A DNA stretch of 64,000 nucleotides from an uncultured Gemmatimonadota bacterium (GTDB taxonomy: Bacteria > Gemmatimonadota > Gemmatimonadetes > Palauibacterales > Palauibacteraceae): assembly GCA_964518305.1 (NCBI GenBank), contig CAZFDK010000004.1, positions 42,986 to 106,985 of the forward strand, given 5' to 3'. This document shows, in pieces, positions 3,523-62,333 of the stretch (position 1 is its first letter; each line of letters begins with the position of its first letter). The notes beneath the pieces are model-generated. The model was not told the DNA's origin. It was given only the letters and a program-made list of their open reading frames with translations, and did no database searches. The position numbers and the translations under genes are program-made.

Positions 3523-3590
3523 GCCGGGAATCTCACCACACGCCCGTCCGGGCGATCCCGACAGATACCATCCGCCACGCGCGGCATCTT
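3523..3590 (+). promoter_or_regulatory. Phased-box promoter of the baeRF gene
   Basis: Boxes GCCGGG-AATCTC-ACCACA (3523-40) and CGTCCG-GGCGAT-CCCGAC (3545-62); -10-like CATCTT at 3585-90; gaps 44 and 22 nt. Confidence 0.65.
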
Positions 3591-3636
3591 GTTCGTCTTC
3601 GCCGCAGAGAGCGTTACCGACAGCCCGGAGGAGAGA

Positions 3637-4842
3637 GTGATCAGCGCGGACGCGTTCACGACCCGCCACGTCTCGGGATCCGACGTGGAGGAGCTGCTGG
3701 AGGACCGGGAGTCGCCGTGCCTGACGATCTACCTGCCCACGCATCGGCCCAACGACCAGGCGGACGCCGACCGCATCCAGTTCCGGGCGTCGCTGGAGAG
3801 GGCCCGCGAGCTGCTGGCCGAGCGCGACGACGCCGATCGGCTCACCGCGCAGCTGGAGGAAGTGGAACCGCTGGCCCGGGACATCGGCTTCTGGCGGAAC
3901 CAGGCCGACGGTTTCGCTCTCTTCCTGGCGCCGGGCTTCCGGCGGGCCTTCCGCCTCCCCGGCGACGTGCCGGAGCTGACGACGGTGGGGGACGCCTTTC
4001 ACCTCCTTCCCCTGATCGGGAGGGTGCAGGATCCCGACCGGTACTGGGTGCTCGAGCTGGGACAGGAGCGGGTGCGTCTCTGGACGGGAGACGCCGAGGG
4101 TGCGCGCCGTCTCAACCCCGAGGCGCTGCCGGTCGATCTCCGGGACGCCCTGGAAGTGGAGTTCGAGCGCGACGTGATGATGGTGCTGACGCGGAAGGAG
4201 AGGGACGGCAGCCACGGCGACCACGGCCGCGGCGGCGTCATGCCGGTCTTCCACGGTCACGGCGAGCGCGGCCCCGGGCGAGAGGAGAGGCTGCTCAGGC
4301 AGTACTGCCGCCGGCTCGACGACGCGCTGAACGAGGTGCTCGGGGAGAGCCGGGCGCCGGTGATCCTGGCGGCCGTGGGGGAGAACCAGGCCGTGTACCG
4401 CGAGGCGTCCCGGACGGAGCTTCTGACGGAGGAGGGCATCGAGGCGAACGTGCAGCACTGGTCGCCCGAGGAGGTGCACGAGGCAGCGTGGCCCATCGCA
4501 CAGAGCCAGGCGCAGAACACCGTGGACCGGGCGCTGGAGATCTGGGAGCGCGCCGGAGGCGGCGGGAAGGCGGAGTCGGACCTGGCCAACCTGAGCCATC
4601 TGGCCGCCCGCGGACGGATCCGTCTCCTCATGGTGGAGAAAGGGCGACGGGCCTGGGGGCGACGTGATCCGGGGACCGGTGACGTGGAGTTCGCACGGGA
4701 GGGAGGTGAGGACCCGAGCGGGGAGTCCGTGGAGATCCTGGACGCCGTGGCCCGGAGCGTGCTCCGGCACGGGGGAACCGTCCTGCCGCTCTCTCCCGAC
4801 CGGATGCCCGTCGGGAGCGGCGCGGCCGGGGTCCTCTGGTGA
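3637..4842 (+). CDS. Bacterial archaeo-eukaryotic release factor-like (baeRF) protein, candidate Balon/Rv2629-type ribosome hibernation factor
   Basis: PCLTIYLPTH, FWRNQADGFALF, GDAFHLLPL, PVILAAV, C-terminal eL30-like block (ILDAVARSVLRHGGTV); GTG at 3637 with GGAGGAG SD. Confidence 0.8.
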   Translation: MISADAFTTRHVSGSDVEELLEDRESPCLTIYLPTHRPNDQADADRIQFRASLERARELLAERDDADRLTAQLEEVEPLARDIGFWRNQADGFALFLAPGFRRAFRLPGDVPELTTVGDAFHLLPLIGRVQDPDRYWVLELGQERVRLWTGDAEGARRLNPEALPVDLRDALEVEFERDVMMVLTRKERDGSHGDHGRGGVMPVFHGHGERGPGREERLLRQYCRRLDDALNEVLGESRAPVILAAVGENQAVYREASRTELLTEEGIEANVQHWSPEEVHEAAWPIAQSQAQNTVDRALEIWERAGGGGKAESDLANLSHLAARGRIRLLMVEKGRRAWGRRDPGTGDVEFAREGGEDPSGESVEILDAVARSVLRHGGTVLPLSPDRMPVGSGAAGVLW

Positions 4843-4896
4843 GCGATCGCCGCCGCCGCGCGTGTCAGAGGGGTGGACGCGACCCCGGACCTCGCG

Positions 4897-5451
4897 CTAC
4901 CGTTGCTTTCCGTCCAGGACCGTGAGCACCGAGGCCACGTCCGAGCGGGGTGACTCCAGGACCAGCGTGATCGACACCGCTTCCAGGTTCGTCAGGGCCG
5001 CAGCGGCGGCGGCCACCCGAACCGGCCATACCAGGTCCAGGGCCAGGAGCCCGACCGTGGCCCCGATGACCAGGAAATAGGACGCCTTGGCGGTGAGGGT
5101 GTGGTAGGAGGGCATCTGCCCGAACTTCGTCAGGCTCAGGAGCCACGATGCGGCGTAGGTGGCGGGCACGAGAGCGATCCACGGCCACTCCCCGAGCAGC
5201 ACCTCCCACTCCAGCACGGCCAGACCGCCCAGCAGGAGGCCGTACATCACCATGTCGGCGATGCTGTCCAGCCGGGCCCCGAGCTCGCTTCGCTGATCCA
5301 GGAGCACCGCGAGCTTCCCGTCGAGCCAGTCGGTGGCCTCCAGGGCCAGGAACAGGTACAGGAACAGGTCCGACCGCCCGGCGAGGGCCAGGACGGCCAG
5401 GGCCGGCGCGATCGCCAGGCGGACGCTGGTGATGGCGTTCGGGAGGTTCAC
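4897..5451 (-). CDS. CDP-alcohol phosphatidyltransferase family protein
   Basis: NLPNAITSVR start and signature DWLDGKLA...GARLDSIAD; hydrophobic. Confidence 0.9.
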   Translation of the reverse strand: MNLPNAITSVRLAIAPALAVLALAGRSDLFLYLFLALEATDWLDGKLAVLLDQRSELGARLDSIADMVMYGLLLGGLAVLEWEVLLGEWPWIALVPATYAASWLLSLTKFGQMPSYHTLTAKASYFLVIGATVGLLALDLVWPVRVAAAAAALTNLEAVSITLVLESPRSDVASVLTVLDGKQR

Positions 5452-5668
5452 TCCGACCTCCGGGGGACGGCCAGCACCGGGCCGTGCGCGGAGCGGTCCG
5501 GATCGGCGCCCCGCACGTGCGACCGAACCGCCCGGTGCGACGGCTCCAGGGGGAGCCGGACGACGGCGCTTCGGAAGTCGGGCATCGGGCGGATCATCTC
5601 GTCGGGGCCGGGGGCCCTCCGGGCCGGCCGTTCGCAGTCGCAGGGTTCAAAGAATGTCTCCGTGACGG

Positions 5669-5686
5669 AGTGGGGCTCTTCCCGGC
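5669..5686. promoter_or_regulatory. Isolated palindromic box in the divergent CDP-alcohol transferase / cdsA region
   Basis: AGTGGG-GCTCTT-CCCGGC matches the 6-6-6 box, but no phased partner or -10 was found. Confidence 0.35.
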
Positions 5687-12761: not shown

Positions 12762-12853
12762 GCGGTGACCTTCCCCACATATCCGGGGACGCCTCCCCCA
12801 CTCGCGGCGAGGAGACGTCCCCGACATCGCGACGTCCCGCGTTCGTCCACCCT
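12762..12853 (+). promoter_or_regulatory. Phased-box promoter of the dodecin-PRT(-otsA) unit
   Basis: Box ends CCCACA (12774-79), CCCACT (12797-802), CCCGAC (12820-25), each 23 bp apart; CACCCT at 12848-53; gaps 45 and 22 nt. Confidence 0.65.
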
Positions 12854-13964: not shown

Positions 13965-15476
13965 ATGATGGTCGACGTTCCGGGCGATCGGCTGGTCGTG
14001 GCTTCGAACAGGTTGCCGATCGACCTCGAGCGCACGGCGGACGGCGAATGGACCGCCGAGCCCGGGTCCGGCGGACTGGTCACCGCTCTCAGCCCGGTGC
14101 TGGAGCAGACCGCCGGCCTGTGGGTCGGGTGGCCGGGTACCGTATCGGCCGATCCGATCCCCGCGGTACGGCGGGCCCTGCAGCGTCTCTCGGAGCAGAC
14201 CAGCTACGAGCTGGCTCCGGTCTGGATGAGCGAGCGGGAGCGGGACGCCTACTACTACGGGTTCTCGAACGAGGTCCTGTGGCCGCTGCTGCACGACCTC
14301 CAGGGCCGCTACCACTTCGACCCCGACTACTGGACGGCCTACCGGGACGTCAACAGACGGTTCGCGGAGACCCTGGCCGGCGTCCTGACGTCGGACGATT
14401 ACCTCTGGGTGCACGACTACCACCTGATGCGGGTCGCGGCCGAGCTCCGGGACATCGGCGTGTCGGCGCCGACGGGCTATTTCCTCCACACGTCGTTCCC
14501 CGCGCCGGACCTGTACGTCAAGCTACCGTGGCGATACGAGCTTCTCCAGTCTCTCCTCCAGTACGATCTCATCGGCTTCCAGACGCTCCGGGACCGCCAG
14601 AACTTCCTGGATTGTGTGCGGAAGTTCCTGCCCGGGACGGCCATAGAGGGCACCGGGTCGGTCGTGACGGGCCACCGGAACGAGCGGTCGGTGCGGGTCG
14701 GGGCGTTCCCCATAAGCATCGATGTCGACGAGTTCGTGGACGTCGCCGGAAGCCGGGAAGTCGAGGAGCACAGGCAGCGCATCCGCCGGAATCTTCCCGA
14801 TCGCGAGATCCTGCTGAGCGTCTCGCGACTCGACTACACCAAGGGAATACCGGAGCAGCTCGAGGCCTTCCGCGCCGCGCTGGAGCGCCACCCGGATCTC
14901 CGGGGCAGCGTGAGCCTGGTGGCGGTCGTCGTGCCGAGCCGGGAGGGAATTCCCGAGTACTCGGACCTGAAGTCGGACGTCGAGATCCTCGTCGGGGAGA
15001 TAAACGGCCGCTTCGCCGAGGGAGGATGGGTGCCGGTGCACTACATGTATCGTTCGCTCTCCCGGCCCGAGCTCGTCGCCTACTACCGGAGCGCCGCCGC
15101 CATGCTCGTCGCCCCGCTCAAGGACGGGATGAACCTCGTGGCCAAGGAGTACTGCGCCGTCCAGGAGGAGGGGGAGGGCGCGCTCCTGTTGAGCGAATTC
15201 GCCGGAGCCGCCGCCCAGCTCCAGGACGGCGCGATCCTGGTGAACCCGTACGACGTGGTCCGGACCGCCGACGCCATCCACACGGCGCTGACCATGGACG
15301 CAGGCGAGCGCCGTCGGCGGATGGGGCACCTGCGATCGGAGATCGAGGCGCAGGACATCTACTGGTGGGTCGAGAACTTCTTCCGGGCCGCAGGGGCCGA
15401 CACCCTGGCGGGATTTCCCAGTCTCCGTGAGTACCGGCCCTGGGGCCGGGGCCGCATGGAGCCGCGGGGCGGTTGA
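13965..15476 (+). CDS. otsA: Trehalose-6-phosphate synthase
   Basis: VASNRLP, GGLVTAL, WVGWPG, WVHDYHL, FLHTSFP, RLDYTKG, DGMNLVAKEY, LLSEFAGAA, VNPYD. Confidence 0.93.
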   Translation: MMVDVPGDRLVVASNRLPIDLERTADGEWTAEPGSGGLVTALSPVLEQTAGLWVGWPGTVSADPIPAVRRALQRLSEQTSYELAPVWMSERERDAYYYGFSNEVLWPLLHDLQGRYHFDPDYWTAYRDVNRRFAETLAGVLTSDDYLWVHDYHLMRVAAELRDIGVSAPTGYFLHTSFPAPDLYVKLPWRYELLQSLLQYDLIGFQTLRDRQNFLDCVRKFLPGTAIEGTGSVVTGHRNERSVRVGAFPISIDVDEFVDVAGSREVEEHRQRIRRNLPDREILLSVSRLDYTKGIPEQLEAFRAALERHPDLRGSVSLVAVVVPSREGIPEYSDLKSDVEILVGEINGRFAEGGWVPVHYMYRSLSRPELVAYYRSAAAMLVAPLKDGMNLVAKEYCAVQEEGEGALLLSEFAGAAAQLQDGAILVNPYDVVRTADAIHTALTMDAGERRRRMGHLRSEIEAQDIYWWVENFFRAAGADTLAGFPSLREYRPWGRGRMEPRGG

Positions 15477-15492: not shown

Positions 15493-15561
15493 GTCCGAAG
15501 ATCTCCCACAGGCCACGGGGAGGGGTCCCCCACGGATCGTCAACGCCCGGAAGGGTATTCT
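15493..15561 (+). promoter_or_regulatory. Phased-box promoter of the small membrane-anchored protein
   Basis: GTCCGA-AGATCT-CCCACA (15493-510) and box ending CCCACG (15534); TATTCT at 15556-61; gaps 45 and 21 nt. Confidence 0.65.
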
Positions 15562-17795: not shown

Positions 17796-17888
17796 GGTCC
17801 AGGGGCCGGCGGAGTCTATTCGGCGCCGACGCCCGCGATGCCGGTAAGGGCCGGTCAGGGGAGGTCGGTAGGAAGTATCACGACGGTC

Positions 17889-17958
17889 GGAGGGGAAGAT
17901 CCCGACCGATCCGGTGCACCAGGTCCGGACAGCCAGGCGGGGTGAAACGTGCTATCCT
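17889..17958 (+). promoter_or_regulatory. Phased-box promoter of hsp20
   Basis: GGAGGG-GAAGAT-CCCGAC (17889-906), GGTGCA-CCAGGT-CCGGAC (17913-30); extended -10 TGcTATCCT with hexamer at 17953-58; gaps 46 and 22 nt. Confidence 0.7.
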
Positions 17959-18989: not shown

Positions 18990-20005
18990 TGGACCGGAAT
19001 CAGCAGGGCGGGCCGGCTCTGTTCTCGCTGGAGGCGAGCCGGGAGTTCGGCGAGTCCGTGGCCGAGCGCATCGGGATGGAGCTCGCAGAGCACGAGGAGC
19101 GATCCTTCGAGGACGGCGAGCACAAGACCAGGCCCCTGGTCCACGTCCGCGACCGGGACGTCTATGTGGTCCAGTCCCTGTACGGGGAGCCGGGGGAGAC
19201 GGTGAACGACAAGCTCTGCCGGCTCCTCTTCTTCCTCGGATCCCTGCGGGACGCGGGCGCCGGCCGTCTCACGGCGGTCCTCCCGTACCTCTGCTATGCG
19301 CGGAAGGACCGGAAGACCAAGCCCCGTGATCCGATCACGACCCGGTACGTGGCCGGCCTGCTCGAGTCCGTGGGCGTCGACCGGGTGGTCGCCCTGGACG
19401 TCCACAACATGGCGGCCTTCCAGAACGCGTACCGGAACCCCACGGTCCACCTGGAGGCCCGCCCCGTGCTGGCCGACCACTTCCTCGCCGAGGTCGGCCG
19501 GGACACCGACCTGACCGTGGTCTCCCCGGACGCCGGCGGTGCCAAGCGCGCCCAGGCCCTGCGGGAGACGCTGCAGGACCGCCTCGGCCGGGAGCTGCCG
19601 CTGGCCTTCCTCGAGAAGCGCAGGAGCTGGGGCCAGGTCTCCGGCGGGACCCTGGTCGGCGAGGTGGACGGAAGGGCGGCGCTGCTGCTGGACGACCTGG
19701 TGAGCACCGGCACCACCCTGGTCCGGGCGGCGCGGGCGTGCCGGGAGGCCGGCGCCCGTGAAGTCCGCGCGGCGGCCACGCACGGGCTCTTCGTCGGCGA
19801 CGCCGAGGAGAGGCTGTCGGACCCGGCCCTGGACAGCGTGGCCGTGACGGACTCCGTGCCGCCCTTTCGTCTCTCGGAGCGGTTCGTGGAACGCAGGCTC
19901 AGCGTGGTGAGCGTGGCGGGGCTGCTGGCCGAGACGGTGCGTCGGCTCCAGGCCGGGGAATCGGTCGTGGAGATCCAGGACCCCACGGACACGGCTCCGC
20001 GCTAG
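18986..20005 (+). CDS. prs: Ribose-phosphate pyrophosphokinase
   Basis: [47 protein letters not shown]. Confidence 0.9.
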
Positions 20006-20024
20006 GATCCGGGATCGACCTCCC

Positions 20025-23487: not shown

Positions 23488-23556
23488 AACGTGAACTGGT
23501 AGTGCCCCGCGTGCTGTCGGGAGGATTGCGGTCGGGGAAGTGGGGAAAAGGGAGGG
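23488..23556 (-). promoter_or_regulatory. Phased-box promoter of DUF2267-THUMP / ybaK
   Basis: Minus-strand box ends CCCACT (23544>39) and CCCGAC (23521>16); CACGTT at 23493>88; gaps 45 and 22 nt. Confidence 0.65.
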
Positions 23557-25919: not shown

Positions 25920-25988
25920 AAGCTGTCGAGGCGGGACGCGGGCTGCTGTGGGGAGCAGCACGTAGAGCCGGGTGGGGAAACGGCGGAG
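25920..25988 (-). promoter_or_regulatory. Phased-box promoter of the SLC13 permease
   Basis: Minus-strand CCCACC (25976>71) and CCCACA (25952>47); CAGCTT at 25925>20; gaps 45 and 21 nt. Confidence 0.55.
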
Positions 25989-26022: not shown

Positions 26023-26090
26023 GGCGAACTCTTCCCCACGCGGCCGTGGTCCAGCTCACCACAGACCCGACCGGCGCGCGGCCGTAGTAT
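26023..26090 (+). promoter_or_regulatory. Phased-box promoter of the DUF72 to SAM-synthetase run
   Basis: Box ends CCCACG (26035-40) and ACCACA (26058-63); TAGTAT at 26085-90 (overlapping TATGAT); gaps 44 and 21 nt. Confidence 0.65.
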
Positions 26091-33983: not shown

Positions 33984-35141
33984 CTACGGACGGACCAGGA
34001 GCCGGCCGTCGTCGGCGAGCTCGAGGTCGGCTCCGTCCAGCCTCCGGCTCTCACGCTGGAGCGTGTCCCGCATCCAGCGTCCGGCCTCGAGTCCCGCGCG
34101 CTCCAGCCGGAATCGGTGGATGCGCATCGGGACCATCTCGAGGCGCTCGAGACGACCGGTGCCGGCGTTCAGCACCGGGAGGTAGATCAGCACGAGCTCG
34201 GGCCGGTACTCCTCGTGGCCAGCGATACCCTCGTAGTCGTTGAGGAAGTCACCGCATCCGTACAGGACGAGGTGCCCTCCGTGGATCTCGAGGCCTTTCG
34301 GGTGATGGGAGGAGTGGCCGTGGACGACGTCGACGCCGGCGTCCTCCACGAGGTGACGGGCGAATCGGCGCTGTTCCCCGGGGATCCCGTAGCCCCAGTT
34401 CGGACCCCAGTGCAGTGAGACGACGACGAGGTCGTTCTCCCGACGAACACGCCGCAGCCACCGACCGGCGTCCCGGGCGGCCGCCCGAGACGGCTCCGGC
34501 AGGTAGCTGATCCCGGGGCGATCCGCATCCGCCGCCCACTCTCCGGGCACGCCGGCGCTCGGAAAGCCCAGGGCGAGGACCAGGACGCGCCCGTCCGTGC
34601 CGTCGATGTCGACGGTGGCCGGGGTTCGGGCCCCCTCTCGATCGGATCCGGCCCCGGCCGTGCGCACGCCGCCGGCCTCCAGCGAGTCCAGCGTCTCACG
34701 CAGGCCGGATCGTCCCCAGTCCAGCACGTGGTTGTTGGCCAGCACGGCCACGTCGACGTCCCCGGCCACGAGGCACCCCACGTTGGCCGGGTGGGTCCGG
34801 TAGTGGATCCCCTTCCCCGGCCAGGCGTCCTCGCTGGTGGTCGCCGCGGTCTCCAGGTTCACGACCCGGGCGTCCGTGTCGGCCCGGTCGAGCGCGTCCA
34901 GCGCGTCGCCCCACGGGTAGTCCAGACTCACCGGAGCGGGGATCGGGCCGCTCTCCCGCTCCGCCAGCTCGACGTACCGGCGGGCGTCCTTCACGTGTGG
35001 CTCGTGCAGCGACGGCGGCACGGACTGGGAGAAGACCTGGTCGAGCCCGCGGCCGATCATCACGTCGCCGGCGAGGAAGAGGGTGACGGTCCCGTCCGGG
35101 CCCGCTCCGCCGCCGCTCCGTACCGTCTCCGATGGCGCCAT
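33984..35141 (-). CDS. CapA family metallophosphoesterase (Rv0574c-like)
   Basis: GDVMIGRG, VNLET, LANNHVLDWG, SLHWG, HGHSSHH, YGCGDFLNDYEG. Confidence 0.9.
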   Translation of the reverse strand: MAPSETVRSGGGAGPDGTVTLFLAGDVMIGRGLDQVFSQSVPPSLHEPHVKDARRYVELAERESGPIPAPVSLDYPWGDALDALDRADTDARVVNLETAATTSEDAWPGKGIHYRTHPANVGCLVAGDVDVAVLANNHVLDWGRSGLRETLDSLEAGGVRTAGAGSDREGARTPATVDIDGTDGRVLVLALGFPSAGVPGEWAADADRPGISYLPEPSRAAARDAGRWLRRVRRENDLVVVSLHWGPNWGYGIPGEQRRFARHLVEDAGVDVVHGHSSHHPKGLEIHGGHLVLYGCGDFLNDYEGIAGHEEYRPELVLIYLPVLNAGTGRLERLEMVPMRIHRFRLERAGLEAGRWMRDTLQRESRRLDGADLELADDGRLLVRP

Positions 35142-35232
35142 GGGAGTTCTCCCGACGGATGCCGACGGCCTCCTCCCACGTCGTCCGCCGGGGCCTTCCC
35201 GACGGAGTCGGCGTGCCGCACGACGGTAAGGT
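35139..35232 (+). promoter_or_regulatory. Phased-box promoter of polX-esterase-nrdJ (probably leaderless)
   Basis: CATGGG-AGTTCT-CCCGAC (35139-56), box ends CCCACG (35180) and CCCGAC (35203); TAAGGT at 35227-32; gaps 46 and 23 nt; ATG 7 nt downstream. Confidence 0.65.
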
Positions 35233-35239
35233 ACAGTCC

Positions 35240-41510: not shown

Positions 41511-41537
41511 TCTTGATCGGCCAGGACCCGGTCAAGA
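41511..41537. repeat. Inverted repeat TCTTGATCGG-N7-CCGGTCAAGA
   Basis: 9/10 match arms; overlaps the -10 and predicted start site of the minus-strand promoter. Confidence 0.55.
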
Positions 41538-41602
41538 TAGGGCGTCACCGCCGGCCTCCCCATCGGGAATCGCCCCCGATCCCGGGTGGGGGATCTCCCC
41601 CG
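41534..41602 (-). promoter_or_regulatory. Phased-box promoter of the Na/Pi-like gene
   Basis: Boxes GGTGGG-GGATCT-CCCCCG (41585-602) and ATCGGG-AATCGC-CCCCGA (41562-79); TATCTT at 41539>34; gaps 45 and 22 nt. Confidence 0.7.
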
Positions 41603-41620
41603 TAGGCGGAGATCCCCCAC
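41586..41620. repeat. Perfect 13-bp inverted repeat GTGGGGGATCTCC-N9-GGAGATCCCCCAC
   Basis: Exact reverse-complement arms, formed by two back-to-back boxes. Confidence 0.85.
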
Positions 41621-41694
41621 ATCGCTGTGCTTGCTCCTCCCACGAGCACTTCGACGTCCTCCCGACAGACGTCCTCGCTTCCGCGAGGCACGTT
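41604..41694 (+). promoter_or_regulatory. Phased-box promoter of the N-ATPase operon
   Basis: Box ends CCCACA (41621), CCCACG (41644), CCCGAC (41666); CACGTT at 41689-94; gaps 44 and 22 nt. Confidence 0.6.
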
Positions 41695-42030: not shown

Positions 42031-43839
<1,809 letters not shown>

Positions 43840-43853
<14 letters not shown>

Positions 43854-44492: not shown

Positions 44493-44496
44493 CGCC

Positions 44497-45198: not shown

Positions 45199-45227
45199 AA
45201 GAACATTAGATAAAACTGGTGAAATAC

Positions 45228-45503: not shown

Positions 45504-45506
45504 TCC

Positions 45507-46286
45507 GTGGAGATCGACTGGTTCACGTTCGGGGCGCAGGTCCTGAACTTCGTGATCCTCGTCTTCCTCCTGCGCCGGTTCCTGTACGAGCCCGTGACGG
45601 AGGCCATCGATCGCCGGGAGGAGCGGATCCGCCGCCGGCAGGAGGAGGCCGAGCGTCGGCGCCGCGAGGCCCGGCGGGAGGCCGAGTCGTACCGGGAGGA
45701 GCGGCGCGAGCTGGAGGCGGCTCGCGAGGAGAAGCTCCGCGAGGCCGAGCGGGAGGCCGAGCGCCTCCGTGAGAGGCTGGAGGAGGAGGCCCGGGAGGAG
45801 GCCGACGAATCCCGGGACCGGTGGCGGCGCGCCGTGGAGCGGGAGCGCGAGAGCCTCCTGGAGGAGCTGCAGGAGCGGATCGCGGACCACGCCCTGGCCA
45901 CCACCCGGAGTCTCCTGCAGCAGCTGGCCGGGCGCGACCTGGAGAGGGAGGCCGTGCGGACGTTCGCCCGCCGGCTGTCCGGGCTGGACGAGGAGGAGGC
46001 GACGAGCTTCGTCGAGGCCGTTCGGGAGTCGGACGGCGAAGCGGGAGTGTACACCCGTTTCGAGCTGGACGCCGACTCCCGGGAAGTGCTCGGGGAGGCG
46101 GTGCAGGAGCGACTGGGGCCGGGACTCGACCTGGACTTCGACACCTCGGACGGGATCGTGCTGGGGGTGGAGCTTCGGGCGGGGGACCGAAAGATCGCGT
46201 GGAGCGCCGGCGATCGTCTCGACCTTGCCGAGCGGGAGGTCTCCGACCTCATCGAAGCCGACAGCCGGAGCCAGGAAGACACGTGA
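45507..46286 (+). CDS. atpF: N-ATPase b subunit (long, delta-like C-terminus)
   Basis: [20 protein letters not shown], coiled coil, C-terminal [14 protein letters not shown]. Confidence 0.9.
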
Positions 46287-47794
46287 CCTCGCTCGGCGAG
46301 GCCGTTCGGCGTCCGCTGGCGGCGATGGAGCGGGTCGTCACGGAGGCGGGACGCCGGCCGCGAGTACGCGAGTACGGAGTGGTCCGCTCCGTCGACTCGG
46401 ACGTCGTTCGCGTATCGGGACTCTCCGGGGCCGGCCGCGACGAGCTGCTCCGTTTTCCGGGCGGTGAGGTGGGCCTGGCCTTCGACCTCGACCCGGGCGG
46501 GATCGGGGTCGTGCTCCTGGATTCGGCCCGGGGGGTCGAGGCCGGACAGGAAGTCCGCCGCACCGGGAGGCAGTTCGACGTGCCGGTGGGGGAGGAGCTC
46601 CTGGGACGAGTGGTGGACGGGGGCGGGCGTCCCCTGGACGACCGGGGCCCGGTGGGTGCCGCGCACCGACTCCCCGTGCATCGGGAAGCGCCTCCGATCA
46701 TGAGCCGTGCCCCGGTGTCGGAGCCGCTGCAAACCGGCGTGAAGGCCGTGGACGCCCTGGTACCCGTGGGGCGCGGGCAGCGGGAGCTCGTGGTGGGTGA
46801 CCGACAGACCGGCAAGACCACGCTGGCGGTGGACACGATCGTGAACCAGGCGACGTCCGGCGTGCCGTGCGTCTACTGCGCCCTGGGACAGCGGACTGCC
46901 GCGGTGGCTCGGGTCCTGGAGCACCTGCGGCAGTCGGGGGCCATGGAGAACAGCGTCGTCGTGGTGGCCGGCGGAGACGACCCCCCGGCGCTCCAGTACG
47001 TGGCCCCCTATGCGGCGACCTCCATGGCCGAGCACTTCACCGAGAACGGCCGTGACGTCCTCGTCGTCTACGACGACCTGACCCGTCACGCACGCGCTTA
47101 CCGCGAGCTGTCCCTCCTGCTTCGGCGACCGCCGGCCCGTGAGGCGTTTCCGGGCGACGTGTTCCACGTCCAAGCCCGACTCCTGGAACGCGCCACCCGG
47201 CTCAGGGAGGAGGAGGGCGGCGGGTCCCTGACCGCGCTGCCCGTGGTGGAGACGGAAGCGCAGAACCTGTCGGCGTACATCCCCACGAACCTGATCTCCA
47301 TCACCGACGGCCAGATCTACCTGTCCCCGGAGCTCTTCCGCCGGGGCATGCTGCCGGCGGTGGACGTGGAGCGCTCGGTCTCGCGGGTGGGGGGACGGGC
47401 GCAGCTCCCGGCCTATCGCGAGGTCGTGGCCGACCTGAAGCTGGCGTACTCGCAGTTCCTGGAGCTGGAAGTCTTCTCGCGCTTCTCAACCCAGCTGGAC
47501 GAGGAGACGCGGGCGAAGCTGGAGAGGGGCAGGCGGGTGCGGGAGGTGCTCAAGCAGCGCGAGGGCGAGCCGGTCCCGCCCGCCGAGCAGGTGGCGGTCC
47601 TGCTGGCGGCCACGGCCGGCGCGCTGGACGAGGTCCCGCTGGAGGAGATCGGGGCCGCCGAGCGTCGCGTGCGCTCGGCGGTCCGCGACAAACTGCCCGA
47701 TCTGTGCGAGCGCATCGAGGAGGGGGTGGAGCTGGCCGAGAACGACGTCGATCGCCTGCTGGAGGCCGTCCGGACGGCGGCGGCCCGGGGCTGA
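46283..47794 (+). CDS. atpA: N-ATPase F1 alpha subunit
   Basis: [46 protein letters not shown]. Confidence 0.95.
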
Positions 47795-47804
47795 AGGGAC
47801 CGCC

Positions 47805-48737
47805 ATGGAGAGGAAGGAGCGGCTTCGGAAGCGGGTGGACGCGGCGGAGAGTCTGCATTCGATCGCCGGAGCCATGAAGGCCCTGGCCTCGGTCCGGATC
47901 CGGGGGTTCCGGGACGCCGTCGCCTCCCTGGAGGAGTATCGCGCCAGCCTGGAGCTCGGGTTCCAGGTGGCGCTACGGGACGTCCCCGGCGGGCGGCGGG
48001 CGGGACGCGCCGCGGCGGGCGCGCTCGTCGAGGAGCAGGAGGGGAGGCCGGCAGGCGTCGTGATCTTCGGGTCGGACCTGGGGCTCGTCGGTCAGTTCAA
48101 CGAGCGGATCGCCTCGTTCGCCGCCGCCCGCCTCCGGGAACGGGACGATCCGGTGCGGGTGGCAGCGGTGGGCAGGCGGCTGGTGCCCCATCTGCGGAGC
48201 CACGGCGTGGAGCCGGCGACCGTCCTGCCGGTGGCCGCCGGCTCCTCCCGCCTTACGGGGCTCGCCCGTGAGCTCCTGCTCACCGTCGAGCGGTGGCGAG
48301 GCGAGGGAGCGGAGCGGGTGGCGGTCACGCACCACGCCTACCGCCGTGGAACCTCCTACGGGCCCCGCTGGCAGCTTCTCCTCCCCCTGGACCCGGCCTG
48401 GCTGGCCGAGCTCGTGGACCGGCCGTGGCCCACGCGGGTGATTCCCACGTACCGGGCTCCCTGGGAAACGCTGTTCGGCTTCCTCGTCCGCGAGCATCTC
48501 AACGTCTCCATGGTCCGGGCGGCGGCGGAGTCCCAGGCCTCCGAGCATGCGGGCCGGCTGGCCGCCATGGAGCGGGCCGAGAGCCGGATCGAGGAGCACG
48601 TGGGGCAGCTGCGGCAGGAGCTCAGGGACCGGCGACAGGAGGCGATCACCGAGGAGTTGATGGACCTGATGACCGGATACCGGGCGGCCGAGGAGGGAGA
48701 GGAGCGGCGCAGGGGCCGTCGCGAAGGCGAGCCGTGA
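47805..48737 (+). CDS. atpG: N-ATPase gamma subunit
   Basis: AMKALA, GSDLGLVGQFN, SEHAGRLAAM, RQEAITEEL. Confidence 0.92.
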   Translation: MERKERLRKRVDAAESLHSIAGAMKALASVRIRGFRDAVASLEEYRASLELGFQVALRDVPGGRRAGRAAAGALVEEQEGRPAGVVIFGSDLGLVGQFNERIASFAAARLRERDDPVRVAAVGRRLVPHLRSHGVEPATVLPVAAGSSRLTGLARELLLTVERWRGEGAERVAVTHHAYRRGTSYGPRWQLLLPLDPAWLAELVDRPWPTRVIPTYRAPWETLFGFLVREHLNVSMVRAAAESQASEHAGRLAAMERAESRIEEHVGQLRQELRDRRQEAITEELMDLMTGYRAAEEGEERRRGRREGEP

Positions 48738-57779: not shown

Positions 57780-58997
57780 TCACGGCTCGTCGTCCGCGCG
57801 CCGGTCTGCGTCCCGCAGCGTCGGATCGCCCTGAGACGAGGCGCTGGCCCGGAAGGTCCCGAGCGATACCCGGTCGAGGAGGCGCTCTCCCTCGGAGACC
57901 TCGCCTCCCGGGACGCCGGGCTCCAGGACCAGCCGCGCGGTCTCGATCAGGGAAAGGCATACCACGAACAGGATCGGGCCGATCAGGATCCCGACGGCCC
58001 CGAAGACGAAAATCGCTCCCAGCACGCTGAAGAGCACGATGAGCGGGTGGAGCTGCGCCCGGCCGCTGACCAGGATGGCGCGGAGGACGTTGTCGATGGT
58101 GCTCACGACCAGGGTTCCGACGGCCAGCAGGGCGAGCCCCTCGCCGATCCGTCCCCGGTAGAGGAGGATCAGGCCCGCGGGGACCCAGATGAAGGGAGCG
58201 CCCACGATGGGCAGGAGGGCGAAGACCGCTACCACCGTGCCCCACAGCACCGGGGCCGGGACGCCGACGATCCAGAACGCCAGGCCGACCAGCAGCCCCT
58301 GGACCAGGGCCACGACCACGTTTCCGTACATCGTCGCGTAGGTGACTTCCAGGGAGCGCTGGAGCAGGCGCTCGGTGTACCCCGGATCCAGGGGGATGAG
58401 CCAGCGGCCCATCTTGACGATACCGCGCCCGTCGCGCAGGAGGTAGAAGATGGTGAACAGTGCGATTCCGCCCTGCAGGAACCAGCCCCCGAGCCCGGAC
58501 AGGAAGCTCAGGGTGCGGTCCGCCAGAAGGCTCGGCACCTGCTCCATCTGCTGTCCGAGCTGAGCGGAGACTTCCTCCGGCTCCAGGCCCAGGTAACCGC
58601 CGGCGCTCTCGAGCCAGCGCCGCAGAGCGCTGTCCGGGGCGAGCAGCCCCGACATCTGCAGGCTGACCTGCTGGATGCCCGACCGCAGCTCGTCCACCAG
58701 GACCAGAGAGAGAGCGACCAGGGGGATGAGGATCGCGAAGAAGAGCACCGTGGTGCCCACCAGCGCCGCCACGTCCCGATGGCCGATCCACTCCTCCAGC
58801 CGCTCGTACGCGGGATACACCAGCGCGGCGAGGGTGGCGCTGGTGAGCAGCGCCGGCGCGAACGGCCAGAGCAGCAAGACGAGCAGATAGGCGGCGCCGA
58901 GGCCGAGGGCCAGGATCACGATCTGCCGTGCTCCGACGACGCCCGCTCGGGCACCGTCAGCCGTGTCGGGCCCCGGCCGATCGGGGGCGTCCCTCAA
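57780..58997 (-). CDS. AI-2E (PerM) family transporter (start approximate)
   Basis: FYLLRDG, LVQG, LLPIVGA, DNVLR, HPLIVLFSVLG, GILIGP. Confidence 0.88.
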   Translation of the reverse strand: MRDAPDRPGPDTADGARAGVVGARQIVILALGLGAAYLLVLLLWPFAPALLTSATLAALVYPAYERLEEWIGHRDVAALVGTTVLFFAILIPLVALSLVLVDELRSGIQQVSLQMSGLLAPDSALRRWLESAGGYLGLEPEEVSAQLGQQMEQVPSLLADRTLSFLSGLGGWFLQGGIALFTIFYLLRDGRGIVKMGRWLIPLDPGYTERLLQRSLEVTYATMYGNVVVALVQGLLVGLAFWIVGVPAPVLWGTVVAVFALLPIVGAPFIWVPAGLILLYRGRIGEGLALLAVGTLVVSTIDNVLRAILVSGRAQLHPLIVLFSVLGAIFVFGAVGILIGPILFVVCLSLIETARLVLEPGVPGGEVSEGERLLDRVSLGTFRASASSQGDPTLRDADRRADDEP

Positions 58998-59001
58998 CGC
59001 G

Positions 59002-59796
59002 CTAACCCAGCGCCACGTCGAGGTAGAGCATGACCATGATCCCCAGCATGGTGCCGAAGGTCGCCACGCGGGCATGTCCCTTCCGGTGCGTCTCGGGGAT
59101 GATCTCGTTGCTGATCACGTACAGCATGGCCCCCGCTGCGAACCCCATGGCATACGGGAGGACAGGCTCCGCGAACTCCACGGCCCACGCCCCGCCCACG
59201 GCCAGGGGAATCTCCACGAGTCCGGCCCGGATTCCCACGAACGCCGCGTAGAAGGCGGCGCCGAAGCCCACGGTCAGGGCGGAGGCCGCGACGGCCAGCC
59301 CCTCGGGGATGTTCTGGATGCCGATGGCCAGCATGAGTGGAAGGGCGTTTGACAGGTCTCCCGAACCGAAGCCCACGCCCACGGCCAGGCCCTCCGGGGC
59401 GTTGTGGAGGGTGATGGCGAAGATGAAGAGCCACACGGCCCGGAGACGCTCGGTGTCCGCACCCTCGCGGCCCTTCACCATGTGCAGGTGGGGGACGTAA
59501 CGGTCGCCCAGGTAGAGGAAGAGGGCCCCCAGCGACATGCCGACCAGGACGCTCACGATGCCGCCCTCCTCGACGCCGGGAATGATGAGGCTCGTGTAGG
59601 AGGCAGTGAGCATGACGCCGGCGCCGAACCCGAGCGCCGTGTCCAGGAACCGCTCCGAGGGTTCGCGCCAGACCACGATGGCCAGGGCGCCGATCGTGTT
59701 CAACAGGGTGATCACCAGTCCGCCCACCAGGCCCTGGACCACCGGGTTCGAGCCCGATAGACGGAGGAACAGCTCCTGGAACCAGCCGGGGTCCAT
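59002..59796 (-). CDS. ZIP family metal transporter (GufA type)
   Basis: GFGAGVML, ITLHNAPEG, IQNIPEG, FAAGAMLYV...EIIPE. Confidence 0.92.
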   Translation of the reverse strand: MDPGWFQELFLRLSGSNPVVQGLVGGLVITLLNTIGALAIVVWREPSERFLDTALGFGAGVMLTASYTSLIIPGVEEGGIVSVLVGMSLGALFLYLGDRYVPHLHMVKGREGADTERLRAVWLFIFAITLHNAPEGLAVGVGFGSGDLSNALPLMLAIGIQNIPEGLAVAASALTVGFGAAFYAAFVGIRAGLVEIPLAVGGAWAVEFAEPVLPYAMGFAAGAMLYVISNEIIPETHRKGHARVATFGTMLGIMVMLYLDVALG

Positions 59797-60434: not shown

Positions 60435-60525
60435 CCTCTGCCTCTCTCCTTGAGGTGCAAGCGTCGAACGATGGGCGCCGCCAGTGGCACGATACGACCG
60501 CCGCCGGGCTCCCTTCAACGCCGCC

Positions 60526-60594
60526 AAGATAGAGACTCACCGCCCCCGTGGCCGTCCTCGACCTGTTGCTCGGCGGTGTGGGGAGATTCCCGAC
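60526..60594 (-). promoter_or_regulatory. Box plus -10 for the CBS-ZIP-AI-2E unit
   Basis: TGTGGG-GAGATT-CCCGAC (60577-94); TATCTT at 60531>26; gap 45 nt; proximal box not recognisable. Confidence 0.55.
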
Positions 60595-60668
60595 GTTGCG
60601 AGCTACGGCCTCCCGACGTGCCTCTCCGCGACAACCGGACAGACGGCCCGGCACCCCGGGTCTAGCTT
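60577..60668 (+). promoter_or_regulatory. Phased-box promoter of the SDR-ZIP unit
   Basis: Box ends CCCGAC (60594), CCCGAC (60617), CCGGAC (60640); TAGCTT at 60663-68; gaps 45 and 22 nt. Confidence 0.7.
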
Positions 60669-60748
60669 TCCGGTCTCGAATCCCGGCCCGAGGAGTCGGG
60701 CCGAACAGACATCCCGATCGACAACCGACAGGACCTGGAAGGAAGATC

Positions 60749-61516
60749 ATGGGACGCGCGGAAGGCAAGGTCGCCCTGGTGACGGGCGCAGCACACGGCA
60801 TCGGCAGATCGACGGCGATCCTCCTGGCACGGGAGGGGGCGAAGGTGGCCGTCACCGACGTGGACACGGAGGCGTCGCGCGACGTGGTGCGGGAGATCGA
60901 GGGAGTCGTGGGCACCGCCCACGCGTGGGAGCTCGACGTTTCCGACGAGGAGCAGGTACGCCGGGTCACCGACGAGGTGGTGGACCACTTCGGCGGCCTC
61001 GACGTCCTGGTCAACAACGCCGGCATCTCCGGTGCCGACCGGCCGACCCACGAGCTGAGCCTGGAGGAATGGGAGGAGGTACAGGCCGTGAACACCCGCG
61101 GTGTATTCCTGTGCACCAGGGAAGCGATCCCCCACATGAAGGATGCGGGCGGCGGCAGCATCGTGAACCTGTCCTCCATATACGGCATCGTCAGCGCCCC
61201 GGACATTCCGTCCTATCACGCCTCCAAGGGCGCCGTCCGGATGATGACCAAGACCGACGCGCTGTTCTACGCGGAGGACGGGATCCGGGTGAACTCCGTA
61301 CACCCCGGCTTCATCTGGACACCGCTCGTGGAGGACTACTTGGAGAGCCAGGGCGACGTGGAGGAGGGTCGGCGGCAGCTCGCCGAGCTCCACCCGCTCG
61401 GCCGGGTCGGCGAGCCCGAGGAGATCGCCCAGGGCATCCTCTTCCTGGCCTCCGACGAGTCGAGCTTCATGACCGGCTCGGAGCTGGTGATCGACGGGGG
61501 CTATACGGCCCGATAG
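60749..61516 (+). CDS. Short-chain dehydrogenase/reductase
   Basis: TGAAHGIG, NNAGI, NLSS, YHASK, VNSVHPG, VIDGG. Confidence 0.93.
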   Translation: MGRAEGKVALVTGAAHGIGRSTAILLAREGAKVAVTDVDTEASRDVVREIEGVVGTAHAWELDVSDEEQVRRVTDEVVDHFGGLDVLVNNAGISGADRPTHELSLEEWEEVQAVNTRGVFLCTREAIPHMKDAGGGSIVNLSSIYGIVSAPDIPSYHASKGAVRMMTKTDALFYAEDGIRVNSVHPGFIWTPLVEDYLESQGDVEEGRRQLAELHPLGRVGEPEEIAQGILFLASDESSFMTGSELVIDGGYTAR

Positions 61517-61525
61517 AGCGAGCGC

Positions 61526-62266
61526 GTGACGACATTCCTCTGGATCCTGTCCGGCGGCGTGCTGATGAGCGTGATCGCGCTGGTGGGCAGCACGACGCTC
61601 CTCCTGCGCGAGGACACGCTCCGTCGCCTCCTCCTGCCCCTGGTGGCCTTCGCCGCCGGCTCACTCCTGGGGGGAGCCTTCTTCCACATGCTCCCGTCGG
61701 CCCTGGGGGAGATGGGTGACCCGACGCTGGTCTTCGCCTGGCTCCTGGCCGGCTTCCTGATCTTCTTCATGATCGAGCAGTTCCTGCACTGGCACCACTG
61801 CCATCGGGACGTGGCCGAGTGCCGGGAGCCGCTCACCTACCTGATCCTGCTGGGCGACGGCCTCCATAACTTCATGGGGGGACTGGCGGTGGCCAGCGCC
61901 TTCCTCGTCGACGTGCGGCTCGGCGTCACAACCTGGGTGGCGGCCGCGGCCCACGAGGTTCCCCAGGAGCTCGGTGACTTCGCGGTGCTCGTTCACGGTG
62001 GCTGGACGGCGCGTCGGGCTCTCTTCTTCAACCTTCTCTCCGGGCTCACCTTCCTGGTCGGGGCCCTGGCGGCCTACGTTGCCTCGCACCAGCTCGAGGT
62101 CGACTTCCTGCTGCCCCTGGCGGCGGGCAACTTCGTCTACATAGCCGCCTCCGACCTGGTGCCCGAGGTGAACAGGAACGAGACGATCCGTCACAACCTG
62201 CTCCACCTCGCCGCCTTCTCCGCGGGACTCGGTCTTCTCCTCGCGCTCCGGGTGGGACTGCACTGA
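61526..62266 (+). CDS. ZIP family metal transporter (second, His-rich loop type)
   Basis: FAAGSLLG, HWHHCH, DGLHNF, HEVPQELGDF, AAGNFVYIA.SDL.PE. Confidence 0.92.
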   Translation: MTTFLWILSGGVLMSVIALVGSTTLLLREDTLRRLLLPLVAFAAGSLLGGAFFHMLPSALGEMGDPTLVFAWLLAGFLIFFMIEQFLHWHHCHRDVAECREPLTYLILLGDGLHNFMGGLAVASAFLVDVRLGVTTWVAAAAHEVPQELGDFAVLVHGGWTARRALFFNLLSGLTFLVGALAAYVASHQLEVDFLLPLAAGNFVYIAASDLVPEVNRNETIRHNLLHLAAFSAGLGLLLALRVGLH

Positions 62267-62333
62267 TTCCGTTTTCCCCACACGCCGGATGGGGGATTCT
62301 CCGACTTCCCTCGATCGAGCGCGCAGGTAACAT
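62265..62333 (+). promoter_or_regulatory. Phased-box promoter of the coiled-coil / cytochrome unit
   Basis: Box ending CCCACA (62282) and GATGGG-GGATTC-TCCGAC (62288-305); TAACAT at 62328-33; gaps 45 and 22 nt. Confidence 0.7.

Follow-up and report, generated by a model that had tools for sequence, protein, structure and literature searches.

Phased tandem palindromes before thirteen promoters of a Gemmatimonadota genome: predicted operators of a NarL/FixJ-family response regulator

Introduction

What regulatory system, if any, is served by the short phased repeats that stand before 13 promoters in a 64,000-nucleotide stretch of DNA (hereafter the window)? The source organism is a Gemmatimonadota MAG; the phylum is abundant and genetically unstudied. 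The original prediction, made from the letters alone, held that a single, possibly undescribed activator of the NarL/FixJ type controls the whole island through these boxes. We examined the motif and its spacing, its distribution within the genome and the phylum, and the candidate regulators located beside it.

Methods

Genes were called with a simple in-house caller, and Pfam was used for family annotation. The main box matrix was trained on this genome's own intergenic sites. A separate half-site matrix, with training sites from other genomes only, was used to scan for composites, defined as two boxes 22-24 bp apart with YAnnnT at 22-23 nt. The phylum comparison comprised 78 orthologous regulator loci from other Gemmatimonadota (70-76% identity).

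Results

Promoter architecture

All 13 intervals contain tandem boxes as originally described, with 17-mers bearing CCCSAC-like ends located 22-23 and 45-47 nt before a YAnnnT hexamer (21-23 and 44-46 nt in the original description); the CBS promoter has the distal box only. Five of the 13 carry a third box ending 68-70 nt before the hexamer. The promoters are as follows, with box scores in bits and spacers measured from box end to hexamer.

3523..3590, + strand: baeRF promoter (Pfam baeRF_family3); distal box 3523-3539 (GCCGGGAATCTCACCAC, 15.6 bits), proximal box 3546-3562 (6.7); hexamer CATCTT 3585-3590; spacers 45 and 22 nt
12762..12853, + strand: dodecin/trehalose-synthesis (GT20) promoter; boxes 12762-12778 (16.6 bits), 12785-12801 (5.9), 12809-12825 (11.4); hexamer CACCCT 12848-12853; spacers 69, 46 and 22 nt
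15493..15561, + strand: promoter of a 75-aa membrane protein gene; boxes 15493-15509 (13.6 bits), 15517-15533 (8.5); hexamer TATTCT 15556-15561; spacers 46 and 22 nt
17868..17958, + strand: hsp20 promoter (HSP20); boxes 17868-17884 (9.7 bits), 17890-17906 (6.2), 17914-17930 (CCGGAC variant, 2.1); hexamer TATCCT 17953-17958; spacers 68, 46 and 22 nt
23488..23556, - strand: DUF2267-THUMP promoter (Pfam annotation); boxes 23540-23556 (5.4 bits), 23516-23532 (11.0); hexamer CACGTT 23488-23493; spacers 46 and 22 nt
25920..25988, - strand: CitMHS/SLC13 transporter promoter (Pfam annotation); boxes 25972-25988 (12.2 bits), 25948-25964 (12.9); hexamer CAGCTT 25920-25925; spacers 46 and 22 nt
26023..26090, + strand: DUF72 promoter (Pfam annotation); boxes 26023-26039 (13.6 bits), 26046-26062 (14.3); hexamer TAGTAT 26085-26090; spacers 45 and 22 nt
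35140..35232, + strand: PolX promoter; boxes 35140-35156 (19.2 bits), 35163-35179 (3.0), 35187-35203 (13.8); hexamer TAAGGT 35227-35232; spacers 70, 47 and 23 nt
41534..41602, - strand: promoter of a Na/Pi-cotransporter-like gene (Pfam annotation); boxes 41586-41602 (7.0 bits), 41562-41578 (4.3); hexamer TATCTT 41534-41539; spacers 46 and 22 nt
41604..41694, + strand: N-ATPase operon promoter; boxes 41604-41620 (10.3 bits), 41627-41643 (4.2), 41650-41666 (16.5); hexamer CACGTT 41689-41694; spacers 68, 45 and 22 nt
60526..60594, - strand: CBS-pair protein promoter (Pfam annotation); distal box 60578-60594 (GTCGGGAATCTCCCCAC, 23.1 bits), proximal box absent; hexamer TATCTT 60526-60531; spacer 46 nt
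60578..60668, + strand: SDR promoter; boxes 60578-60594 (21.1 bits), 60601-60617 (5.4), and a weak CCGGACAG proximal variant; hexamer TAGCTT 60663-60668; spacers 68 and 45 nt
62265..62333, + strand: promoter of a 108-aa gene followed by a Tll0287-like gene; boxes 62265-62281 (3.0 bits), 62289-62305 (12.0); hexamer TAACAT 62328-62333; spacers 46 and 22 nt

The proximal spacer is 22 nt throughout, except at polX (23 nt). Box strength is uneven: hsp20, SDR and Na/Pi have weak proximal boxes and polX and N-ATPase weak middle ones (all <7 bits), and the Na/Pi-cotransporter-like promoter has the weakest pair among the 13. The window's best palindrome, 60578-60594, is common to the divergent CBS and SDR promoters and is kept in the relative L001, as is the proximal box before the 108-aa and Tll0287-like genes. 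At hsp20, the same-genus relative L181 keeps the boxes and a TA..CT hexamer while the intervening sequence varies. The dodecin promoter is followed by Dodecin and a GT20 trehalose-6-phosphate synthase (13965-15476), the N-ATPase operon begins with the ATP synthase beta subunit and has the N-ATPase gene order, and no Pfam family matched the 75-aa membrane protein. Because the baeRF hexamer overlaps the called TTG start, the true start is probably further downstream, e.g., GTG 3717; a polX start codon downstream of its hexamer is likewise plausible, since in the called gene the match to the Pfam PolX domains starts at residue 28.

Read symmetrically, the box consensus is GTSGGGA-N3-TCCCSAC, a 17-bp palindrome in which GGG and CCC stand 5 bp apart; the 6 bp counted previously arose because the variable S base was included in the left triplet. 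The boxes recur every 23-24 bp (2.2-2.3 helical turns). When 16 tandem sites from seven contigs were aligned on the proximal box end, 13 of them had A at +24 and 12 had T at +28, and therefore a tAnntT hexamer is fixed after a 22-nt spacer. Promoters in the rest of the genome follow TTG[AC][CA]-N17/18-TANNNT (38 cases at spacer 17, 28 at spacer 18). The canonical TTGACA-type -35 is absent from the box promoters, though used elsewhere in the genome, and the proximal box would centre near -43, in its place. This agrees with the predicted DosR-like occupation of -35 by the proximal site, in what would be a class II position.

Enrichment and regulon size

Comparison of upstream regions in the window with the genome's other upstream regions returned CCCCAC as the top oriented 6-mer (11 seen, 2.5 expected) and TCCCGAC as the top oriented 7-mer (9 seen, 1.3 expected). 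Across the genome, same-strand CCC[CG]AC pairs in intergenic DNA peaked at separations of 23 bp (7 pairs) and 24 bp (13 pairs), with 1-5 pairs at each neighbouring distance and an echo at 47 bp (7 pairs); coding DNA genome-wide had no 23-24 bp peak. With the foreign-trained half-site matrix, the window's intergenic DNA contained eight full composites, compared with 0.1 predicted from coding density and none in 300 dinucleotide shuffles. An unbiased regex search also picked up the SLC13 pair and the SDR site.

With the main matrix the box was present in ~71 intergenic regions of the genome, 19 of them on this contig, counts that are partly circular because that matrix was trained on this genome's intergenic matches. 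Thus the idea of an island-wide regulon stood as regards boxes across the island and failed as regards confinement to it: the sites suggest a regulon of roughly 50-70 operons, genome-wide and phylum-wide, which in this genus is concentrated in a region of >100 kb. Box-associated targets include hsp20, USPs, CBS proteins, HPF, trehalose synthesis, hydrogenase, cytochromes and nosZ, and the full architecture is present at the nosZ and Rrf2 promoters. The predicted output would span dormancy, protection against stress, osmoadaptation and energy metabolism at low oxygen, clade II nosZ being part of the last.

Candidate regulator and kinases

The genome's two best GerE-HTH matches are paralogous REC-GerE response regulators, each directly behind boxes. 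One (C4:10630-11286) lies 32 kb to the left of the window; the other (C6:5004-5681) is probably ~11 kb to its right, across a contig gap inside nosZ. Both have the recognition helix KTVDTYR, and the C6 gene is preceded by a perfect palindrome, a second box 24 bp on, 22 nt and then CAAACT. The expectation of a single activator therefore holds for the type of regulator and not for the protein, there being two paralogues with identical recognition helices. Only two HisKA_3 kinases occur in the genome, one FixL-like with a PAS domain and the other with a HAMP domain, and both are behind boxes. FixL haem PAS structures match the PAS domain of the former (E ~1e-14), and the proximal His lines up; its haem binding and O2 sensing are putative only, because Leu replaces the O2-binding Arg220 of FixL.

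Conservation across Gemmatimonadota

Among the 78 loci, box matches were concentrated ~46-fold beside the kinase-regulator operon (115 in 50 kb, 2.3 per kb) relative to the rest of the loci (17 in 347 kb, 0.05 per kb). A site of at least 13 bits lay between the HAMP kinase gene and the divergently oriented PAS kinase-regulator operon in 47 of 69 loci, and one lay just after the regulator gene, before cytochrome c or haem-copper oxidase genes, in 24 of 76. Twenty-six non-redundant loci share a single architecture (palindrome, 22-24 bp, cTCCCGACAGA, 22 nt, YAAnTT), and the recognition helix is invariant in all 78. In most other Gemmatimonadota the canonical composite faces the HAMP kinase and not the PAS kinase-regulator genes, so autoregulation of the regulator is clear only in this genus. 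We found no description of this regulon in Gemmatimonadota.

Alternative readings

The boxes are most likely operators of a NarL/FixJ-family REC-GerE response regulator conserved throughout Gemmatimonadota, the family originally proposed, as judged in silico from the box-fronted paralogues, the HisKA_3 kinases and the clustering across the 78 loci. It is unlikely, though it is the strongest competitor, that a different transcription factor binds the palindrome and that the two-component genes are merely conserved targets. Linkage of motif and regulator gene shows that the locus is regulated, not which protein binds; the TGTG...CACA flanks of the cross-phylum consensus recall CRP-type sites, and an Rrf2 regulator is also within the regulon. 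However, the genome's only credible Crp/Fnr-type HTH (C101) is near no site, and the palindrome exceeds a CRP site by 3 bp and has an odd centre. The T-S-G-G-G-A half-site instead resembles that of DosR, a sequence recognised by a GerE HTH. The genome's four NarL-type signalling genes all have boxes associated with them, and the recognition helix does not vary wherever the motif is conserved.

A good deal less probable is mainly repressive or dual action by this regulator at the boxes, with something else driving the promoters. NarL-family regulators can repress, and some sites are 0-40 nt from called gene starts, yet a fixed 22 nt to the -10 together with an absent -35 is the signature of activator-dependent promoters, and the boxes sit upstream of the core promoter, clear of the -10 hexamer and the predicted start. 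We give still less weight to the proximal box as the -35 of an alternative (e.g., ECF) sigma factor with UP-like or accessory upstream copies: CCGACA within the box resembles TTGACA and some hexamers (CACGTT) resemble ECF -10 motifs, but the distance from any hexamer containing GACA to the -10 would be 19-21 nt versus 16-18 nt in this genome, the -10 consensus TAnnnT matches the housekeeping sigma, and the boxes are dyad-symmetric, repeated two or three times and, in the best copies, perfect palindromes common to divergent promoters. A chance pattern, an artefact of base composition (70% G+C) or a dispersed repeat without regulatory role is effectively refuted by the intergenic-only distance peak, the fixed position relative to the -10 hexamer, the composite-free shuffles, the retention of the motif at orthologous loci in dozens of genomes and the footprint at hsp20, even though the genome-wide enrichment of single heptamers in intergenic DNA is only 1.1-2.3-fold and the motif escaped a first EM search.

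Discussion

We put the probability of the operator reading, taken as a whole with a two-kinase, class II activation mechanism of a dormancy, stress and low-oxygen regulon, at about 0.75. Under this mechanism, the phosphorylated regulator would bind the 17-bp palindrome as dimers, two or three of which would assemble cooperatively on successive boxes. The proximal dimer, ending 22 nt before the TAnnnT -10, would substitute for the missing -35 element and, because it replaces that element, is inferred to recruit RNA polymerase as a class II activator in the manner of DosR. Phosphoryl groups would come from the two HisKA_3 kinases, one soluble with a FixL-like, probably haem-binding PAS domain and the other membrane-bound with a HAMP domain. 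Oxygen or redox limitation is the likely signal, although it could be other than oxygen because the island also holds many osmotic-stress genes. Such a regulon would bring operons for stress, dormancy and respiration at low oxygen, nitrous-oxide reductase among them, under one system.

Comparison with known systems

At NarL 7-2-7 sites and GacA/UvrY boxes (TGTAAG-N6-CTTACA), dimers of GerE-type response regulators bind inverted repeats of heptamers or hexamers, and the TGT...ACA flanks of the Gemmatimonadota box resemble the GacA box. The Gemmatimonadota box differs from both in half-site sequence and spacing (7-3-7 with a G-rich core), and phased tandem boxes abutting -35 are not typical of GacA sites.

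The resemblance to FixL-FixJ of rhizobia and Caulobacter lies in the sensor PAS, which is most similar to the FixL haem PAS, in FixJ being among the closest solved structures of the regulator's DNA-binding domain, and in the box-preceded haem-copper oxidase or cytochrome c gene behind the regulator in many Gemmatimonadota, which recalls FixLJ-fixNOQP. In contrast, the kinase core is HisKA_3 (DesK/NarX type) rather than the HisKA of FixL, Arg220 is not conserved, and a FixK-type intermediate is absent, the regulator appearing to act directly on dozens of promoters.

With DosR/DevR-DosS/DosT of Mycobacterium tuberculosis the system shares a NarL-family REC-GerE regulator with two kinases, a palindromic operator with a T-S-G-G-G-A half-site core and apparent autoregulation. 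The DosR regulon likewise contains hsp20/alpha-crystallin, several USPs, CBS proteins, a ribosome hibernation factor, a P-type ATPase and hydrogenase or anaerobic respiration genes. Both systems have at least two tandem boxes with the proximal one near -43 replacing -35: DosR sites lie at -42.5 and -63.5, with tandem arrangement and phasing essential (PMC3177182), and the hspX box is centred at -43.5, with DosR contacting sigma region 4 and alpha (PMC13486717). The operator, however, measures 17 bp here, its GGG and CCC 5 bp apart, and 20 bp in DosR, where they are 8 bp apart, and the period is 23-24 rather than 21 bp. The base-reading residues K179, K182 and N183 of DosR correspond to K, D and T, only the first being kept, and the sensors are PAS and HAMP kinases instead of GAF-haem kinases. 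In its DNA-binding domain the regulator is nearer to EsrB/SsrB/FixJ than to DosR, and the phylum differs. The Gemmatimonadota system would work like DosR, with a regulator that is not a DosR orthologue.

Box motif and its enrichment

All 13 promoter intervals of the original prediction were re-read from the sequence and contained what had been described there, and its gene names were matched by Pfam (baeRF, dodecin, HSP20, DUF2267-THUMP, CitMHS/SLC13, DUF72, PolX, Na/Pi, and CBS). The gap between GGG and CCC, which had been put at 6 bp, is 5 bp when the palindrome is read symmetrically. The best boxes are perfect 17-bp palindromes of the form GTSGGGA-N3-TCCCSAC; CCCCAC is preferred in boxes distal to the predicted -10 hexamer (YAnnnT) and cTCCCGACAG in proximal ones, and several window boxes are weak (<7 bits in our own matrix).

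Enrichment was assessed independently of the earlier list of boxes. When oriented k-mers in window upstream regions were compared with those in all other upstream regions of the genome under study (G000), the top 6-mer was CCCCAC (11 seen, 2.5 expected) and the top 7-mer TCCCGAC (9 seen, 1.3 expected). Genome-wide intergenic/coding ratios of single heptamers were weak (1.1- to 2.3-fold), and the signal therefore lies in the arrangement of the word rather than in the word itself. Same-strand CCC[CG]AC pairs in intergenic DNA across the genome showed a sharp maximum at 23 bp (7 pairs) and 24 bp (13 pairs), with 1-5 pairs at neighbouring distances and an echo at 47 bp; no comparable peak was seen among genome-wide pair distances in coding DNA. 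The 23/24-bp pairs were found on contigs C4, C5, C6, C7, C8, and C82. An EM motif finder applied to window intergenic DNA returned only low-information GC-rich patterns, and the k-mer and distance tests were used in its place.

A matrix refined from the CCC[CG]AC pairs (consensus GT.GGaAaTTTCCCcACA) matched 85 intergenic vs 90 coding positions of the genome at >=13 bits, a 7-fold difference in density, and gave 80 intergenic matches vs 14 in dinucleotide shuffles of intergenic DNA, counts that are partly circular because the matrix was trained on intergenic matches. This circularity was removed by training a half-site matrix solely on sites of other genomes, the half-site form being needed because a full-palindrome matrix from other genomes misses half-symmetric proximal boxes. 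With a full composite defined as two boxes 22-24 bp apart followed by YAnnnT after 22-23 nt, the half-site matrix located 8 composites in the 6.2 kb of intergenic DNA in the window, whereas coding density predicts 0.1 and 300 shuffles yielded 0; the recurrent spacing originally reported thus stood against both shuffled and coding sequence.

Promoter architecture

The distance from box to hexamer is fixed, as had been proposed: CCCSAC-like 17-mers end 22 nt (23 nt at polX) and 45-47 nt from the hexamer, CBS having the distal box only, and five promoters carry an additional box at 68-70 nt. When 16 tandem sites, drawn from seven contigs, were aligned by the final C of the proximal box, 13 had A at +24 and 12 had T at +28, which defines a tAnntT hexamer at +23 to +28. 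If the hexamer is taken as -12 to -7, the proximal box occupies -51 to -35 (centre near -43), and the next boxes have their centres near -66/-67 and -90 relative to the predicted start.

Box-bearing promoters are without the TTG[AC][CA] -35 element. Upstream regions of ordinary G000 genes combine this element with TANNNT at a spacer of 17 nt (38 cases) or 18 nt (28 cases), a co-occurrence almost absent from coding DNA; such promoters, which sharply favour spacers of 17-18 nt, resemble classical sigma-70 promoters, and no sign of the Bacteroidota-type -33/-7 promoter was detected in G000 upstream regions. An alternative-sigma reading of the proximal box was rejected on spacing.

A variant of the proximal box, with CCGGACAG in place of CCCGACAG, recurs at three promoters:

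Promoters with the variant proximal box
window 17914-17930, hsp20
window 60640-60650, SDR
C4:108875-108890, Rrf2

This variant scores low in our own matrix and is kept at hsp20 in L181, a relative of the same genus; it is probably functional. In gene calls made with our own codon-usage caller, the predicted -10 hexamer falls at or inside the 5' end of the longest ORF for baeRF (window 3589-4842) and PolX (window 35159-36997). The true start codons of both genes probably lie further downstream (e.g., GTG 3717 for baeRF), and the Pfam domains of PolX begin at residue 28.

Distribution in the genome

Matches of >=12 bits were present in 71 intergenic regions of G000. Contig C4, which contains the window and represents 3.6% of the genome, accounted for 19 of the 71 (binomial p = 5e-12), and 8 were located inside the window (p = 1e-4). 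The regulon had been described as island-wide: its concentration there is genuine (19/71 on C4), but it is not confined to the island, as boxes occur genome-wide.

A Sec-type (clade II) NosZ is divided between two contigs, with its first ~300 residues at the end of C4 and its last ~230 at the start of C6; C6:1-5700 comprises the 3' part of nosZ, then nosD/F/Y, then a paralogue of the candidate regulator. On a single contig of the nearest relative, ~12 kb separates the SDR gene from the C6-type regulator. C4 and C6 are probably adjacent, and the split nosZ together with the contig of the relative argues that C6 probably continues the island. Two promoters beyond the right end of the window have the order box, box, 22 nt, hexamer:

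Composite promoters beyond the right end of the window
C4:108813-108905, Rrf2-family regulator promoter
C4:~109565-109650, nosZ promoter

Candidate regulator and kinases

The best two GerE-HTH matches in a whole-genome scan were paralogous REC-GerE proteins, and the genome encodes only two HisKA_3 kinases, both of which are box-associated:

Candidate signalling genes
C4:10630-11286, REC-GerE protein (Pfam Response_reg + GerE)
C6:5004-5681, REC-GerE paralogue
C4:~19685-20743, PAS-HisKA_3 kinase; divergent box-bearing region common to a receiver-only gene
C3:30441-31394, HAMP-HisKA_3 kinase; 22-bit box pair upstream

The C6 paralogue aligned over its full length with the NarL, VraR, and DevR structures (E = 1e-36 to 1e-32), and the phospho-acceptor Asp is conserved (vvvmDlsmp aligning with NarL lilLDlnmp and DevR vavlDvrlp). 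Upstream of the C6 gene, a perfect palindrome and a second box at 24 bp are followed, after 22 nt, by CAAACT. The C4 regulator is flanked by boxes on both sides, those downstream serving a tandem-USP gene. Comparative genomics points to the REC-GerE protein as the candidate box-binding regulator, and its predicted binding to the inverted repeat as a dimer has indirect support from the dyad-symmetric form of the box and from the conserved linkage of motif and regulator. A Crp/Fnr-type regulator was rejected as the box binder; the single such gene of G000 is not box-associated.

The soluble kinase has a PAS domain that most resembles the haem domains of FixL (E about 1e-14) and DosP, with the proximal His aligned with that of FixL and Leu at the position of FixL Arg220; haem binding is plausible and O2 sensing hypothetical. 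The receiver-only protein (C4:19085-19483, minus strand) lies behind a canonical box pair and, by eye, has an apparent Glu at the expected phospho-acceptor Asp (..DVILLEKRLEDSDG..); it might act as a pseudo-receiver and modulate the adjacent PAS kinase.

Conservation across Gemmatimonadota

The closest records to G000 are MAGs of Gemmatimonadota. A motif scan of the genome and its relatives placed boxes in the 71 intergenic regions of G000 and beside kinase-regulator loci phylum-wide. Across 78 loci of other Gemmatimonadota, Longimicrobiales and Gemmatimonadales included, regulator identity is 70-76% and the recognition helix KTVDTYR is invariant. The typical locus consists of a HAMP-HisKA_3 kinase leftward, boxes, a PAS-HisKA_3 kinase and the regulator rightward, and more boxes, after which come DsbD_2 and haem-copper oxidase subunit I, or cytochrome c; the PAS-HisKA_3-HATPase gene is directly upstream of the regulator, and the HAMP-HisKA_3 gene is divergent. 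Of 69 loci, 47 had a site of >=13 bits upstream of the PAS kinase, and 24 of 76 had one just past the regulator; box matches at those positions numbered 115 in about 50 kb, compared with 17 over the other 347 kb of these loci, a difference of roughly 46-fold. Boxes stood immediately upstream of regulator orthologues in only 4 of 80 loci, the sites lying instead before the preceding kinase gene and after the regulator.

Promoters facing the HAMP kinase in 26 non-redundant loci contain the palindrome, 22-24 bp, cTCCCGACAGA, 22 nt, and CAATTT/TAGCTT/CATCTT, with A at +24 and T at +27 and +28 (17/26 each). In the orthologous loci, no clear -10 for the PAS kinase-regulator operon was found to the right of the conserved palindrome, and beyond this genus the operon has no clearly canonical promoter of its own.

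Perfect palindromes occurred in 13 of 37 same-family genomes and 2 of 24 sister-family genomes, with almost none for the reversed control. By hand count in a 121-genome sample of the phylum, palindromes with <=2 mismatches gave about 93 matches vs about 36 for the control, and G000 had the most palindrome matches (8). At the hsp20 promoter of L181, the one usable relative from an hsp20 orthologue search, the boxes and a TA..CT hexamer are kept and the intervening sequence has diverged.

Regulon content and possible inducing signal

Box-bearing genes for protection and dormancy include hsp20, at least four USP genes, two CBS-pair proteins, an HPF-cold-shock fusion, dodecin with trehalose-6-phosphate synthase, PolX, and baeRF. 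Those for ion and osmotic balance are N-ATPase, P-type ATPase, Kup, SLC13, and Na/Pi, and those for low-oxygen energy metabolism are nosZ, the Rrf2 regulator, the NiFe-hydrogenase small subunit, multihaem cytochromes, 2-oxoacid:ferredoxin oxidoreductase, acetate kinase, formate-THF ligase, and aconitase. The signalling genes of the kinase-regulator system are themselves box-bearing. A broader stress signal is the alternative explanation for this gene set; we favour a persistence programme triggered by hypoxia or redox state, to which we assign a probability of about 55%.

Several neighbouring features were recorded. The ATPase operon (window 41803-48737) has N-ATPase order: beta, epsilon, two small membrane proteins, a, c, b, alpha, gamma. 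A multihaem cytochrome gene is divergent from the NiFe-hydrogenase small-subunit gene at C5:53496-56808. At C4:22250-31994, a 2868-aa ORF follows a tandem-USP gene with a canonical box pair (C4:31994/31971). This ORF looks by eye like a cyclic beta-1,2-glucan synthase/phosphorylase, in which case an osmoprotectant glucan would be part of the regulon.

Transporters near the ATPase operon and the divergent C5 promoter region
window 57780-58919, AI-2E family transporter
window 59002-59796, ZIP transporter
window 61526-62266, ZIP transporter
C5:55359-55453, cytochrome/hydrogenase divergent promoter region; three to four strong boxes, up to 20.8 bits

Gemmatimonadota are among the most abundant phyla of soil and sediment and are important clade II nosZ N2O reducers. 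The analysis provides this phylum with an operator sequence and its promoter architecture, together with a list of targets and a candidate sensor-regulator pair, so that the control of N2O reduction, hydrogen oxidation, and dormancy becomes directly testable and regulon membership becomes predictable from sequence in hundreds of MAGs. More tentatively, the putative haem-PAS kinase, the HAMP kinase, and the NarL-type regulator might constitute a phylum-wide master switch into low-oxygen dormancy, in which one operator code would directly control clade II N2O reductase, high-affinity oxidases, uptake hydrogenase, and extracellular electron-transfer cytochromes, and which would have been expanded in this halophilic genus to a dormancy/osmoprotection island of >100 kb.

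Comparison with known systems

Literature searches yielded no published description of the present system or of transcriptional regulation in Gemmatimonadota. The DNA-binding domain of the regulator is closest to EsrB/SsrB/FixJ, and the sensor PAS resembles that of FixL. The kinase core, however, is HisKA_3 rather than the HisKA (PF00512) of FixL, and there is no FixK-type intermediate, the lone Crp/Fnr-type gene being without boxes.

DosR targets include hsp20, USP, and CBS genes. DosR binds tandem phased boxes, of which the proximal lies at -42.5/-43.5; it makes contact with sigma region 4 and alpha and is served by two kinases (PMC3177182; PMC13486717). The present boxes are likewise tandem and phased, with a proximal centre near -43 relative to the predicted start. 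In the 20-bp Dev box, built of GGGACT half-sites, GGG and CCC are 8 bp apart (PMC3177182), whereas in the operator here, GTSGGGA-N3-TCCCSAC, the gap between the triplets is 5 bp, and the box period is 23-24 bp vs 21 bp in DosR. The base-reading residues of the DevR recognition helix are K179, K182, and N183 (PMC13486717); alignment to 3c3w sets KTVDTY against DevR KTVKNY, so that only K179 is kept and two of the three differ. The PAS-HisKA_3 and HAMP-HisKA_3 kinases are without GAF, in contrast to the GAF-haem sensors DosS/DosT. A DosR orthologue was therefore rejected on operator gap, box period, base-reading residues, and sensor type. If the master-switch reading is true, the system would match the mycobacterial DosR regulon by convergence, having been assembled from FixL-like and NarL-like components. 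The box-bearing promoters are predicted to provide a second, independent example of the DosR-type design, in which phased dimers take the place of the -35 element.
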